Positions 9,015-17,356 of a DNA stretch of 27,605 bases are shown in pieces. Location: positions 1 through 27,605 of IMG/VR virus record IMGVR_UViG_2534681674_000034. The stretch is one strand, 5' to 3'. The notes under the pieces were generated by a model that saw only the letters and a program-made list of their open reading frames with translations, was not told where the DNA came from and made no database searches. A program made the position numbers and the translations under genes. How positions within the stretch are numbered: position 1 is the first letter of the stretch; every line of letters starts with the position of its first letter. The stretch is from a virus. Its lineage: Duplodnaviria; Heunggongvirae; Uroviricota; Caudoviricetes.

Positions 9015-9662
9015 TTATAAGTTGAACTGTACACCTTTTGCTACGGCAACAATTTTACACTCTGGTGTAAGTAAGGATGACTGATAGCGTGGATTGAGAG
9101 GGCTTAAATACACAAGCTTCCCATCAATAACTAATTTCTTTATAGTCATAGATGGTTCATTTTTAAGCGGATCCGGAACTATTACAGCGACGATGCTGCC
9201 ATTTTTATAACTTTCTCCTGGCCTTAGGATCACAGTAGCACCAACTGGGATACTCGGTGATCCTGATGGGTTATGCATTGTGTCATCAGGCATTGAAACG
9301 GCAAAATCACCTTCCTCGACATCAAAGAATGTGGTGATCCTATCGACATTTCCCATTGTTTTCTCTCCTTTTAAGATTAGGAAAGAAATCGCCTCACCCC
9401 ACGAAAGGTAGGGGATCTTGGTGCCTGAGGTACTTTGTACAAAAGATAATTCAGGAGACGATACTCCATATAGGAGATAGGACTCAGTAGTTCCTAATGC
9501 CTGGGCTAACTTACTTAGAGCTTTGCTACCTGGTTCGTTTAGATCTTTCTCCCAGTACCCTATAGTAACCCCAGTCACGCCTGAAAGCTTACCCAGTTCT
9601 ACTTGGGTCAGCCCCTTATCTTTTCTAAGTCTCTTAAGCCTGATGCCAAGGCTTTCCATCAT
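9015..9662 (-). CDS. CI-like prophage repressor (N-terminal HTH-XRE, C-terminal S24 LexA-like autopeptidase)
   Basis: Translation has an HTH region (GLTQVELGKLSGVTGVTIGYWE) and a C-terminal S24-like region. Start set at the first ATG (9662) with AGGAGA upstream; the track ORF starts at a TTG at 9674. Confidence 0.85.
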   Translation of the reverse strand: MMESLGIRLKRLRKDKGLTQVELGKLSGVTGVTIGYWEKDLNEPGSKALSKLAQALGTTESYLLYGVSSPELSFVQSTSGTKIPYLSWGEAISFLILKGEKTMGNVDRITTFFDVEEGDFAVSMPDDTMHNPSGSPSIPVGATVILRPGESYKNGSIVAVIVPDPLKNEPSMTIKKLVIDGKLVYLSPLNPRYQSSLLTPECKIVAVAKGVQFNL

Positions 9663-9689
9663 TTTCTCCTGCAAATTGAATATAAATTA

Positions 9690-15160: not shown

Positions 15161-15406
15161 ATTCATTACGATATGGGAATTCCCATATCGGGTAAAAACG
15201 GTTTGCGGTAAAGCGAGAGTTAAGTAGAATTGCTGCGGGTGCTTGAGGCTATCTGCCTCAGGCATGAACACCAAAAGGCAGATAGAGAAAAGCCCCAGTT
15301 AACATTACGCGTCCTGCAAGACGCTTAACATTAATCTGAGGCCCAATCTATGTCTCACAAATGTAGGTTAGCCTCTTACGCGCCGAAAGGCAAGGAGAAG
15401 CAGGCT

Positions 15407-15562
15407 ATGAAGCAGCAAAAGGCGATGTTAATCGCCCTGATCGTCATCTGTTTAACCGTCATAGTGACGGCACTGGTAACGAGGAAAGACCTCTGCGAGG
15501 TACGAATCCGAACCGGCCAGACGGAGGTCGCTGTCTTCACAGCTTACGAACCTGAGGAGTAA
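15407..15562 (+). CDS. hok: Hok/Gef-family type I toxin (HokD/RelF-like), 51 aa
   Basis: Translation MKQQKAMLIALIVICLTVIVTALVTRKDLCEVRIRTGQTEVAVFTAYEPEE. AAGGAG SD. ORF extends 19 codons further upstream in frame to an ATG at 15350. Confidence 0.85.
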   Translation: MKQQKAMLIALIVICLTVIVTALVTRKDLCEVRIRTGQTEVAVFTAYEPEE

Positions 15563-15630
15563 GAGACCTGGCGGGGGAGAAATCCCTCGCCACCTCTGAT
15601 GTGTCAGGCATCCTCAACGCACCCGCACTT

Positions 15631-15660
15631 AACCCGCTTCGGCGGGTTTTGTTCTTTTTG
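15631..15660 (+). terminator. Intrinsic terminator after hok (copy 1 of a duplicated terminator)
   Basis: AACCCGCTTCGGCGGGTTTTGTTCTTTTT: GC stem with TTCG loop and T-run. Confidence 0.7.
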
Positions 15661-15806
15661 TGAAAAAAATTCCCTTAAAGGAGATTTTTTTAACTAAAAA
15701 GGTTTACTTTGCTTTCGTATATGGTAAATTTTAGGAATTAGAATTTAAGCGCCCATCAGGCTTGCGTTAGGCAAGTCTGCTAAATCAACAAATTGAGGAT
15801 AAAATC

Positions 15807-16166
15807 ATGGCACTCACTGAATTCGGTAAGGCCGTTAGAAAAGCGAGGATCGATACTGACAGTACTCTTCTGACTATGTCTCAAGAACTGGGCACTACGC
15901 CAGCGTTTCTTAGCGGTTTAGAAACTGGTAGCAAAAAAATACCTCTGAAGTGGGTTAAGAAGATTGATTCTTACTTCAAGGCCAAAGGTGTAGAAATTGA
16001 AGGGTTACAGGAGTTAGCGGCAGTTGCGAATGACTCAGTTCCAGTAAACGGTTTGTCTCAGCAACAGAAAATGCTTGTAGCGGGATTCGCTAAGTCGCAG
16101 TTTACGCCGGAACAGCTAAAGAGTTTTGCAGATTTATTGCAAAAGATTAATAACAATGAGGGGTAA
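15807..16166 (+). CDS. HTH-XRE family transcriptional regulator
   Basis: 119-aa ORF, GAGGA SD. HTH-like segment LLTMSQELGTTPAFLSGLETG. Confidence 0.75.
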   Translation: MALTEFGKAVRKARIDTDSTLLTMSQELGTTPAFLSGLETGSKKIPLKWVKKIDSYFKAKGVEIEGLQELAAVANDSVPVNGLSQQQKMLVAGFAKSQFTPEQLKSFADLLQKINNNEG

Positions 16167-16168
16167 TT

Positions 16169-16645
16169 ATGTATCAAATGAGAGGTAACAGGGTGTCACC
16201 GATGCAAGAAGAAGAAATAGCCTACAGAGCTATAAACTTCTGTAATGCTATTGGTCTTACAGCCTCAAAGCGCAAAAGAAAGCGTTATGATATGTTCTTT
16301 GAAAGCCTGTCAATTTATGGGGTTACTCTTGACGTCAGGACCGACAAAGAGTGGGAGGCTCTGACGTATGATCTAACTATCGGACATTGTGACCCCGCTT
16401 CTCTAACAATTACGGTTCCCAATAAAATATATGTGAATGCTTGCCTTGGGGAAGAGCATGCGCTTGCTGTTATCTTCCACGAGCTAGGTCATTTGCTTCT
16501 TGGACACAAAGCAGTTTTACACTTTTCAGTTAAAGAACCTACTCGTATTGAGGATGCAGAATGGCAGGCAGATACATTTGCGGATATCGTACTGGAAACA
16601 ATTGGCGTGAGAACACAACAGATGTCGTTCGATTTTTATATGTAA
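16169..16645 (+). CDS. ImmA/IrrE-type zinc metallopeptidase (COG2856-like)
   Basis: 158-aa ORF with HELGHLLLGH (HExxHxxxxH). GAGGGG SD. Abuts the XRE gene with a 2-nt gap. Confidence 0.75.
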   Translation: MYQMRGNRVSPMQEEEIAYRAINFCNAIGLTASKRKRKRYDMFFESLSIYGVTLDVRTDKEWEALTYDLTIGHCDPASLTITVPNKIYVNACLGEEHALAVIFHELGHLLLGHKAVLHFSVKEPTRIEDAEWQADTFADIVLETIGVRTQQMSFDFYM

Positions 16646-16809
16646 AAGCCCTGCGCTAACAGGGCTTTTAGGGACGGAAAGTGCGCTAACACATTCCGTA
16701 GTGTATGGAGATAATCCAATCACAACACTTTTTGTAGACAAGCGAAGTGTAGTGGTTCTCCCAACAAAGTGCAACCTGTGTGGATTCACAGGTGAGCAGG
16801 GAAAACGAA

Positions 16810-16962
16810 ATCATGGCAATGGGTACCTGTCGCAAATGTGGCTGTCCATGTGAGATCATTTTTCGCTACTCTGTGTGTGTAGATGGTGTAATGCGCCACG
16901 CGAAAAAAGGGAAGCCTTTCCCGATCCCACTTTGCAGTTGTAGTGGCAAGCACGCAGCTTGA
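16810..16962 (+). CDS. Small Cys-rich (zinc-ribbon-like) protein, about 50 aa
   Basis: MAMGTCRKCGCPCEIIFRYSVCVDGVMRHAKKGKPFPIPLCSCSGKHAA. Start inferred at the internal ATG of the 60-aa track ORF. Confidence 0.4.
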   Translation: MMAMGTCRKCGCPCEIIFRYSVCVDGVMRHAKKGKPFPIPLCSCSGKHAA

Positions 16963-16978
16963 TGTTCAGTACTGACAA

Positions 16979-17008
16979 AACCCGCTTCGGCGGGTTTTGT
17001 TTTTTCCT
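16979..17008 (+). terminator. Intrinsic terminator (copy 2, 23 bp identical to copy 1)
   Basis: AACCCGCTTCGGCGGGTTTTGTTTTTTCC. Confidence 0.7.
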
Positions 17009-17077: not shown

Positions 17078-17356
17078 ATGGCGCACAATACCAAATCACA
17101 CAATTCTGATAATTCAGCTGTCTTTGCCAGCAGGCACGGGCGGCGTTCCCGCACATTCAAATCTGATTGGTACCAGCATCCCCCATGTACTGAAGAACAA
17201 GCTGAATGGCTAATTCAGTGCTACCGCAGACACGGATACGGGATTAAGAAAGCCCTCAGCCTCGATTATCGTCACTGGATAATCTCCGTCAGGCTTCCTT
17301 ACTCTGAACGCCCACCGCGTCCGTCCCGCACATTCCAGCAACGCATCTGGAGGTAA
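17078..17356 (+). CDS. Hypothetical basic protein, 92 aa
   Basis: Internal ATG of the track ORF 16997..17356 (whose TTG start lies inside the terminator). Weak SD. Confidence 0.35.
   Translation: MAHNTKSHNSDNSAVFASRHGRRSRTFKSDWYQHPPCTEEQAEWLIQCYRRHGYGIKKALSLDYRHWIISVRLPYSERPPRPSRTFQQRIWR

Follow-up and report, generated by a model that had tools for sequence, protein, structure and literature searches.

The 27,605-nucleotide stretch of DNA analyzed here (the window, 27.6 kb, IMG/VR virus record IMGVR_UViG_2534681674_000034) is a lambdoid Escherichia coli prophage. Its nin-like region has mok/hokD on the left and, on the right, a rem-like gene and then a DUF968 gene; between them lies a compact 1.35-kb cassette coding for an XRE-type helix-turn-helix (HTH) repressor, a minimal ImmA-like M78 zinc metallopeptidase and, behind a structured leader RNA, a small basic cysteine-rich protein. 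By its sequence features this is autonomous prophage cargo, i.e. a moron, and the hok terminator is the place at which it came in or is exchanged. We tentatively propose that it functions as a self-contained, signal-gated switch releasing the small protein as an effector, an interpretation to which we give slightly less than an even chance.

Three conserved genes and a structured leader RNA

The cassette was compared with about 90 loci drawn from IMG/VR, NCBI and metagenomes. In nearly all of them, the peptidase stop codon is followed, after a further 165-185 nt, by an open reading frame (ORF) of 44-51 amino acids, and this small gene is conserved across Enterobacterales, Alteromonas and Vibrio, with a cysteine-less form in Neisseria. 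An earlier reading of the window from its letters alone, hereafter the sequence-only reading, had placed the gene at 16810..16962; it is a real gene and ends where it was said to end, and its start is the ATG at 16813, with a second ATG at 16819. In a comparison with the copy of Klebsiella phage ST13-OXA48phi12.4 (75% identity), the nonsynonymous divergence (dN) of the small ORF is 0.19, and the ratio of nonsynonymous to synonymous divergence (dN/dS) is about 0.09 in frame versus 1.2-1.4 in two other frames. For the XRE and peptidase genes, dN is 0.087 and 0.10, respectively; synonymous sites are saturated in this comparison. Altogether, the three cassette ORFs read as real genes under purifying selection. 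The Prokaryotic Genome Annotation Pipeline (PGAP) omits the small ORF in most genomes, and in the Klebsiella phage record an overlapping and non-conserved ORF is annotated instead of it (L002 4836-5024).

The consensus of the small protein is M-x-x-G-x-C-x-K-C-G-x-x-C-E-[IV]-x-F...G-K...K-x-G-K-x-F-x-I-P-x-C-x-C, and its 67 homologues are all unnamed. Its description as a CxxC-rich protein holds for the copy in the window and cannot be extended to the whole family, and profile searches gave only weak hints of a zinc finger (Pfam) and of a ribosomal protein. The AlphaFold2 model is all-beta with a predicted local distance difference test (pLDDT) score of 83. The cysteine-less Neisseria form and a group of relatives of 36-39 residues (YIFRRYITKNGKRIYPKNGKVFKIPV) retain the core YIFRxYITKNGKxIYPKxGKVFKIPV. 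These short cysteine-less relatives are found on metagenomic contigs (L093-L098), always directly upstream of a DUF2188 gene. An AAA_15/21 ATPase gene precedes them where upstream sequence is covered, a HEPN gene stands alongside in one locus and a Tn916-type excisionase lies near one of them. By gene content, their surroundings are a defence-like neighbourhood.

Both the length and the sequence of the 165-nt spacer that separates the peptidase gene from the small ORF are conserved, with abundant compensatory changes, and the spacer is predicted to fold into a pseudoknotted leader comprising two hairpins (hp1 and hp2), three stems (P3, P4 and P5) and a pseudoknot with the P5 loop (Table 1). 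On a plain MAFFT alignment, 89.9% of the cells of the manually drawn structure are paired and 20 of its 40 pairs are compensatory, a result reached by none of 500 shuffles; sliding the partner strand by 1-3 columns on the same alignment left 34-49% of the cells paired and 5-8 pairs changed on both sides. With a covariance-model alignment of 37 distinct sequences, the values are 90.8% and 27 of 40 pairs, again with 0 of 500 shuffles. The pseudoknot, which lies outside the covariance model and was counted on an alignment not fitted to it, is paired in 90.1% of the cells, four of its six pairs being compensatory and no shuffle reaching it. Its covariants include AACCCA:UGGGUU, AAUCUA:UAGAUU, ACCCCA:UGGGG, CACCCA:UGGGUG and AAUUCA:UGAAUU. 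In P3 as in P5, the count is 17 G.U pairs for no A.C pair, which argues that the plus strand, i.e. the mRNA, is the folded one.

UUCUCC, which forms the 3' side of P3, does not vary among the loci and has a possible second partner in the ribosome-binding region of the small ORF. The mean energy of this duplex between anti-Shine-Dalgarno (anti-SD) and SD sequences is -8.6 kcal/mol versus -5.6 for shuffled sequences, that of P3 being -7.6, and the minimum-energy fold of the window sequence is the SD-sequestered form (fold z-score of -4.4). As modelled, the layout of the leader is that of a translational riboregulator. Upstream, hp1 is not called by a terminator scan and its sequence suggests that termination there is leaky. 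A search for plus-strand promoters within the spacer of the diverged loci L043 and L004 found none; the sole match in the spacer of the window (9/12, TTCACA-18-AATCAT, 16785-16814) has a -10 element ending at the start codon and so leaves no room for a ribosome-binding site. Because hp1 is weak and no usable promoter was found in the spacer, we infer that the small ORF is expressed by read-through from the cassette promoter.

The P5 region contains the sole CTGT-N8-ACAG site of the window (CTGTGTGGATTCACAG, 16776-16791), which is found in 31 of the 37 loci. We considered a LexA box at this position, whose pattern it fits, and did not keep it as the main reading: a LexA operator would have conserved half-sites around a variable AT-rich centre, here the centre UGGRUU is the conserved part and covaries with 16713-16718 as the pseudoknot, compensatory changes occur in the half-sites of L047 and L059, and the only promoter-like match overlapping the site is the one that ends at the start codon. 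The site is most likely an RNA stem, not an SOS operator.

The loops of hp1 and hp2 (16654-16659 and 16684-16689) are identical within each locus although their stems are unrelated, and differ between loci (CGCUAA, UUGACG, CGUCAA, CUAGGA, CUGCAAA, CUUCGAA and CUGAGAA). Self-complementary cores in most of these twin loops suggest kissing loops; the loop-loop complementarity amounts to 63 versus 46.8 +/- 3.2 in shuffled sequences, yet involves 4-6 bp only. Two other ideas were discarded. The twin loop does not covary with a cassette protein, as L043 and L044 have near-identical proteins and different loops, and a search for its complement elsewhere in the locus, following the logic of the P4 CI RNA or of P1 c4, gave no consistent complement.

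A search of Rfam 15 with the leader yielded no family match and no match on the plus strand. The best matches lie on the minus strand, on hp2 and hp1 (16638-16706), and are below threshold (given in brackets): sX12 with 21 bits (106), STnc370 with 21 (54) and sar with 19.7 (43). Invariant positions also fit a possible minus-strand promoter, TTGCAC-17-TACACT, from 16774 to 16746, from which an antisense transcript of some 95 nt would run as far as hp1.

For the two upstream genes, the coordinates and the motif HELGHLLLGH given by the sequence-only reading proved correct, as did its assignments to the XRE and ImmA/IrrE-type families. A profile built from 15 members of the XRE family retrieved from the PDB the HTH domain of ClgR (E 3.4e-6) as well as those of SinR and HipB, over residues 6-76, and PADLOC HTH_VI matched the protein at 1e-6; on these two grounds it possesses a lambda-repressor-like HTH. 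The match of the same profile to ImmR was marginal (E 0.87). In the C-terminal third, M89, L90, A92, G93, F94 and A95 (M-L-x-A-G-F-A-x-S) are invariant, and by analogy only this segment could be a dimerization, docking or cleavage region.

The peptidase gene starts 2 nt past the XRE stop codon. Its product scores 24.6 bits against Pfam PF06114 (Peptidase_M78), for a gathering score of 22 (E 2.4e-5), and matches the phrog_87 metallo-protease (7e-17). Two motifs, HELGHLxLxHK and E-[DN]-x-EWQAD-x-F, show no variation over 68 homologues, down to 37% identity; in 23 homologues, H104-E105-L-G-H108 and E128-D-A-E131-W-Q-A-D-x-F-A are invariant and align to the ERDIEAQADLFA segment of CapP. The protein thus displays both the HExxH and the downstream glutamate ligand motif of M78/COG2856 enzymes, and its fold resembles the solved COG2856 domains. 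A direct search of the PDB with the peptidase sequence gave no match, and CapP was the sole meaningful PDB match of the family profile. The enzyme consists of the catalytic domain alone, without GAF or HTH domain and without cysteine-switch loop. PGAP places its start 11 codons downstream (window 16169-16201), which is too late since the N-terminus MYQMRGxRV is conserved.

The promoter TTTACT-N16-TAAATT lies where the sequence-only reading had put it. It scores 8/12 in the window, under the cut-off of the scan tool, and its position is kept in about 40 diverged loci when the 170 nt upstream of the XRE gene are aligned over about 45 loci. Homologous promoters pass the sigma-70 scan, such as TTTACA-16-TAAATT with a TG in L043 and TTTACT-16-TATATT in L004. 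The conserved upstream block consists of AACCAAAATGGTT, overlapping the -35 element (GTTTAC), and of the extended -10 element (TGGTAAATT). The first of these is the consensus of an operator-like palindrome, which is replaced at the same place by a different palindrome, TTCAAGTAAAATACTTGAA, in the Neisseria loci, where XRE is the most diverged. In the window the operator-like palindrome occurs once, from which we argue that, in this prophage, the repressor acts on no operon but its own. A hairpin in the 5' untranslated region (UTR) of the XRE gene shows compensatory changes between loci (ACAGGTT/AACCTGT, CAGAC/GTCTG), as judged by eye in the upstream alignment, and is possibly an mRNA stabiliser or a regulatory element.

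Insertion at the hok terminator and genomic contexts

The cassette had been said to be AT-rich, to be bracketed by an identical 23-bp terminator and to be exchanged as a unit, and all of this is borne out. Its GC content is 0.40-0.45, versus 0.50-0.58 in the flanks. The 23 nt of the direct repeat AACCCGCTTCGGCGGGTTTTGTT are identical at 15631 and 16979; on extension the match is 26 of 27 nt, and both copies have terminator-like scores in a terminator scan. Among relatives lacking the cassette, phages vB_EcoS-640R1, vB_EcoS-813R8 and Evi align to the ends of the query only, the two ends lying there no more than about 150 bp apart. The empty site of vB_EcoS-640R1 comprises the hok 3' region, a single copy of AACCCGCTTCGGCGGGTTTTGTT and then the same downstream flank as in the window (TTCCTGGCATTCTGGTTTACAAT); the junction thus falls at the repeated terminator, and the 1348 bp between the two copies are inserted DNA. 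An allele with 68% identity over the whole cassette occupies the identical hok/DUF968 junction in E. coli STEC005 (L107 4820-4870 and 6160-6200), with an intact right copy of the terminator and a degenerate left one (AACCCTCTTTGGCG). The Klebsiella phage copy lies in another context and is followed, about 150 bp further downstream, by a closely similar stem-loop, AAAACCCGCTTCGGCGGGTTTT.

The repeat is best read, from these alignments, as reflecting recombination at a shared terminator together with allelic exchange via conserved flanks. Transposition was rejected as its source: there is neither a transposase nor a pair of terminal inverted repeats, the repeated sequence is that of the hok terminator already resident there, a comparable stem-loop stands 3' of the Klebsiella phage copy and a diverged allele is found at the same junction.

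The cassette region of the window is 100% identical to the chromosomes of O55:H7 and other E. coli. At an identity of at least 98.5% the cassette is present in 49-50 of 5426 complete E. coli genomes, and the 68%-identical version in seven; a search of the complete E. coli genomes for the P0044-type variant gave no match. This distribution, i.e. about 1% of complete E. coli genomes and several prophage types, is the patchy one of a mobile two-gene operon of the Xre-COG2856 toxin-antitoxin (TA) kind. The order of the three genes is kept from Enterobacterales to Neisseria and Alteromonas.

The contexts are diverse. Besides the nin region of lambdoid prophages, as in the window, the cassette is observed at a prophage end beside DinI, SRAP/YedK-like and UmuDC genes (L004-L008 3385-7533), beside DinI in the Klebsiella phage (L002 5445-5678), flanked by tail genes in a Mu-like prophage of Neisseria, next to the integrase in a P2-like prophage of Yersinia in which a reverse transcriptase-trypsin gene is present too, in Providencia between a replication gene on one side and the portal and terminase genes on the other, and in a small integrative element in Alteromonas. 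The Providencia position matches the P2 gpA-gpQ antiviral hotspot (Rousset 2022, PMC9122126). Judged by these neighbourhoods, the sites are cargo positions, not immunity regions. SOS-type neighbours in two unrelated contexts may indicate a link with DNA damage or merely shared cargo regions. In the E. coli P2-hotspot table of the same study, with about 50 text matches to 'Peptidase_M78', the arrangement 'Peptidase_M78 + hypothetical' (WP_052929074 + WP_052929073) recurs; it may be a relative of the cassette whose XRE escapes Pfam.

The leader RNA and the small ORF also occur apart from the XRE and peptidase genes. The same RNA (118-146 bits) and the small ORF follow HicA-HicB and an acidic 146-residue ORF (orf146) in E. 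coli SC476 (L108 2853-4315), Kosakonia quasisacchari (L121) and Kluyvera (L117), beside a prophage integrase; orf146 itself has no family match. As they are found behind HicA-HicB-orf146 in three genera, the RNA and the small ORF form a separable, portable payload. In Providencia (L103 4483-5140), the unit is duplicated in tandem, including the last peptidase codons. In Vibrio, one or two small ORFs lie behind a longer spacer, with two in tandem after a spacer of about 400 nt in L112 (3292-3644). A genome-wide pattern scan for the leader RNA among species representatives returned four true loci and one chance match.

Other genes recognized in the window are those of an integrase, a CI-like repressor, Cro, a YdaT-like protein, O/P-like proteins, RusA and a Q-like protein; the CI-like repressor with an S24 autopeptidase was anticipated by the sequence-only reading. 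As a separate observation, the 3'-terminal part of the hok transcript, as far as the left copy of the terminator (15571-15652), gives a sub-threshold Rfam match to isrK (27 bits for a threshold of 50), an Hfq-binding RNA of Salmonella Gifsy-1.

Table 1. Features of the cassette and of its surroundings, in window positions
Feature	Position	Strand	Details
Left copy of the hok-mRNA terminator	15631..15653	+	AACCCGCTTCGGCGGGTTTTGTT; left insertion boundary; exact 23-nt direct repeat; terminator-like score
Operator-like palindrome	15690..15706	.	TTAACTAAAAAGGTTTA (family consensus AACCAAAATGGTT); overlaps -35; same place in ~40 diverged loci
Cassette promoter	15703..15730	+	-35 TTTACT, 16-nt spacer, extended -10 TGgTAAATT
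Hairpin in XRE-gene 5' UTR	15758..15780	+	CAGGCTTGC-GTTAG-GCAAGTCTG
XRE-type HTH repressor, 119 aa	15807..16166	+	N-terminal HTH and conserved C-terminal segment (QQxMLVAGFAKS)
Minimal ImmA-like M78 zinc metallopeptidase, 158 aa	16169..16645	+	H104-E105-xx-H108, E128/E131-WQAD-x-FA
Structured leader RNA (predicted), ~150 nt, pseudoknotted	16643..16812	+	RNAalifold; manual structure; covariance-model alignment
Leader hp1	16644-16669	+	Weak terminator, four U; overlaps peptidase stop codon
Leader hp2	16675-16698	+	Loop CGCUAA identical to hp1 loop
Leader P3	16707-16711 with 16757-16761	+	GGAGA/UCUCC
Leader P4	16719-16730 with 16745-16756	+	
Leader P5	16775-16792	+	
Leader pseudoknot	16713-16718 with 16781-16786	+	AAUCCA with P5 loop UGGAUU
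Small basic Cys-rich protein, 49 aa	16813..16962	+	C6, C9, C13, C41, C43; core F-R-x-S...G-K...K-x-G-K-x-F-x-I-P
Right terminator copy	16975..17001	+	Right insertion boundary; strong terminator; perfect palindrome ACAAAACCCGC-TTCG-GCGGGTTTTGT and T-run
CI-like repressor	9015..9674	minus	HTH_3 and Peptidase_S24
sok RNA region, beside hok	15237-15412		Rfam sok, 120 bits
mok/hokD type I toxin, left neighbour outside the cassette	15350..15562 (PGAP hokD 15407..15562)	+	Pfam HOK_GEF 3e-23; PGAP of identical locus
rem-like small protein, right neighbour outside the cassette	17078..17356	+	phrog_1212 3e-34
DUF968/YdfU-like protein, right neighbour outside the cassette	17358..18407	+	DUF968 1.6e-77

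A putative signal-gated switch and its alternatives

In the switch that we propose, dimers of the XRE protein on the palindrome would keep the operon repressed, as the analogy of ImmR/ImmA, DdrO/IrrE and CapH/CapP suggests. On a signal, the peptidase would cleave XRE in or near the invariant C-terminal MLVAGFA segment, again as in these analogues; the adjacent stop and start codons of the two genes and the invariance of this segment are circumstantial evidence for such a cleavage. The operon would then be derepressed and transcription would read through hp1, leaving it to the fold of the leader to set the translation of the small gene. With P3 and the pseudoknot formed, the anti-SD strand UUCUCC would be held by GGAGA and the ribosome-binding site would be free, and in the alternative fold UUCUCC would pair with the ribosome-binding site and translation would be blocked. 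The small protein would be the output of the system. That the system is doubly locked, is associated with TA-type modules and lies in cargo slots leads us to propose an effector that is harmful if mistimed. Its role is most likely growth-inhibiting or phage-interfering, this being the weakest step of our argument.

Several observations weigh against this interpretation. The peptidase has no sensor domain of its own, and the Pfam HTH_31 match of the XRE protein is sub-threshold (15.9 bits for 27). The superinfection sensor, anti-repressor-like switch and abortive-infection module put forward by the sequence-only reading are candidate roles at most, and none of the cassette proteins has a significant match among the defence-system models of PADLOC-DB 2.0: the best hits are weak (capH at 0.0097 on the HTH region of XRE, capP at 0.0035 and RmrA at 0.0011 on peptidase residues 101-142, which include HExxH), and the small protein has no match at all. 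A structural search with the small protein gave no fold relative, and its cysteines are missing in Neisseria and in Firmicutes-like relatives. The covariance model fails to detect the leader RNA in Neisseria, Vibrio and the most diverged loci. The possible minus-strand promoter and the sub-threshold sar and STnc370 matches suggest an antisense control instead of, or besides, the switch. Finally, the presence of the RNA and small ORF behind HicAB may mean that the small gene is independent and merely adjacent to the XRE and peptidase genes.

One could alternatively regard the cassette as an Xre-COG2856 toxin-antitoxin or addiction module, in which the peptidase or the small protein would be the toxin and XRE the antitoxin and autorepressor, with a role in prophage stabilisation or stress response. 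We consider this rather unlikely. In its favour, Makarova (2009, PMC2701414) counts Xre-COG2856 pairs among predicted TA-like modules and proposes three-component versions, and a Brucella Zn-metalloproteinase/HTH-Xre pair is reported as a type II TA (PMC10538038). The Providencia homologue is named 'toxin' in one database source, the cassette adjoins another addiction module, hok/sok, and its payload also stands behind a bona fide TA pair, HicAB. The tandem duplication of the RNA and small-ORF unit is also what is seen with small toxin genes. On the other hand, the peptidase is closer to the repressor-cleaving CapP and IrrE than to any known toxin, and the small protein is basic and soluble-looking, unlike the hydrophobic type I toxins. 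A TA function and a signal-gated switch are in any case not mutually exclusive.

Another hypothesis, to which we likewise lend only limited credit, is that the RNA and the small ORF form an independent unit (type I TA-like, antisense-regulated, or an autoregulated RNA-binding mini-protein) that sits beside an unrelated XRE-M78 pair, the latter regulating only itself or distant targets. Its occurrence after HicA-HicB-orf146 in three genera and its duplication alone in Providencia speak for such a unit, and so do the position of hp1 between the peptidase gene and the small ORF and the TTGCAC-17-TACACT fit with the sub-threshold sar, STnc370 and sX12 matches on the minus strand. A basic protein with weak ribosomal-protein and zinc-finger hints would moreover be compatible with binding to its own pseudoknotted leader. 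Against this, the small ORF is kept at a near-constant distance from XRE-M78 in nearly all of the roughly 90 loci, from Enterobacterales to Neisseria. There is no conserved plus-strand promoter in the spacer (none in L043 and L004, and the 9/12 match of the window abuts the start codon), hp1, with its four U and its overlap with the upstream stop codon, suggests leaky termination, and the G.U statistics favour the plus strand for P3 and P5.

Lastly, an auxiliary immunity or induction switch of the host prophage, like ImmR/ImmA or MpaR of Listeria, in which lytic or excision genes would be turned on once XRE or the prophage repressor is cleaved, appears very improbable. The cassette does fit immR-immA in size and gene order, and ImmA-type proteases control the mobilisation of prophages and integrative and conjugative elements (PMC13228613). 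Yet it is absent from phages that are otherwise similar, and its carriers (lambdoid, P2-like and Mu-like prophages as well as small integrative elements) have differing immunity systems, which argues against a role in the immunity of this particular prophage. Moreover, it has no divergent promoter, its palindrome is found once in the window, so that it would not be a second immunity switch, and the prophage already has a CI with an S24 autopeptidase domain, of which the cassette is independent, as the sequence-only reading held.

We thus retain the signal-gated switch as our working proposal. A bolder version, which we regard as rather unlikely, would make the leader a new class of cis-regulatory RNA (a riboswitch, or a riboregulator responding to a protein or an RNA) gating a new family of small zinc-ribbon-like effectors. 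Its upstream sensors, XRE with the M78 protease or HicAB-orf146, would be interchangeable, and the whole would serve, in prophage cargo hotspots, as a so far unrecognised modular trigger of abortive infection or inter-phage conflict with two layers, one transcriptional and one translational. Xre-COG2856 pairs are among the commonest uncharacterised two-gene modules of prophages, and the target that they control is usually obscure. Here, the putative controlled output is visible and conserved, as a 49-residue protein behind a covarying pseudoknotted RNA, in a compact E. coli system where the signal of the protease, the response of the RNA motif and the function of the small protein are open to direct testing. 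The payload behind HicAB suggests a more general design in which TA-like modules would act as triggers of a downstream effector. The cassette also exposes gaps in annotation, with a small gene skipped by PGAP, a wrong ORF in the Klebsiella phage record and a late peptidase start.

Comparison with known systems

Pseudoknotted autoregulatory leaders exist for ribosomal proteins such as S15 and L20. The leader described here resembles them in being a pseudoknotted 5' leader upstream of the gene of a small basic protein, with an anti-SD strand able to pair with the ribosome-binding site. It differs from them by its twin hairpins with identical loops, for which we know of no counterpart. As regards the mode of carriage, morons, reportedly described by Juhala and Hendrix in 2000, are said to be promoter-gene-terminator insertions between conserved phage genes. 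The cassette has its own promoter and terminator, a deviating composition with a lower GC content than its flanks, and a location between genes that are neighbours in related phages; the word moron names this mode of carriage and not a function.

A closer parallel can be drawn with ImmR/ImmA of ICEBs1 from Bacillus subtilis, where a repressor with an N-terminal HTH and a C-terminal domain is directly followed, in one operon of a mobile element, by a single-domain protease of about 160-170 residues. The sequence similarity is marginal, however, and in the cassette XRE shows no control over an excision, transfer or lytic promoter, nor any link with excision or lytic genes. No divergent target promoter is present, since hok and a terminator lie upstream. 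The conserved RNA leader and the small protein downstream have no equivalent in that comparison, and cleavage is assumed here only by analogy.

In CapP and IrrE, the groove that binds single-stranded DNA lies between the peptidase domain and a GAF domain at the C-terminus (PMC13228613). In contrast with the CBASS-associated CapH/CapP and with DdrO/IrrE (PprI) of Deinococcus, the peptidase of the cassette has 158 residues and neither GAF domain nor cysteine-switch loop; because the GAF or sensor domain is lacking, it is not an enzyme of the CapP/IrrE type. The context differs as well: there is no immune operon or DNA-repair regulon next to the pair for it to regulate, the neighbours being hok and rem/DUF968 and the 49-residue ORF being the only one downstream inside the cassette.

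The pair belongs with the Xre-COG2856 modules of Makarova, Wolf and Koonin (2009, PMC2701414), predicted to be TA-like mobile two-gene modules controlling a third component. They associate an Xre HTH with a HExxH protease of about 160 residues in an abundant mobile operon common in prophages. In these modules, the third component is a RelE or PIN toxin and the Xre and peptidase domains are often fused, whereas the cassette has two separate genes for them and, as its third component, a new small cysteine-rich protein behind a structured RNA. PD-lambda-2 (Vassallo 2022, PMC9519451), a three-component anti-phage system of E. coli, similarly combines an Xre HTH with an ImmA/IrrE-type peptidase domain; it consists of a HigB toxin, an Xre-peptidase fusion and a protein related to the P4 antitoxin, without small zinc-ribbon-like protein or RNA leader.

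In the literature that we searched, neither the triad, the small-protein family nor the leader RNA is described, and the protein accessions are not cited. We therefore rate the leader RNA, for which Rfam gave no match either, and the small protein as new. From the sequence comparisons, the XRE-M78 pair is an Xre-COG2856 pair of the familiar kind, with ImmR/ImmA as its nearest counterpart in size and order, and the new elements that this cassette adds to it are the leader RNA and the small protein.

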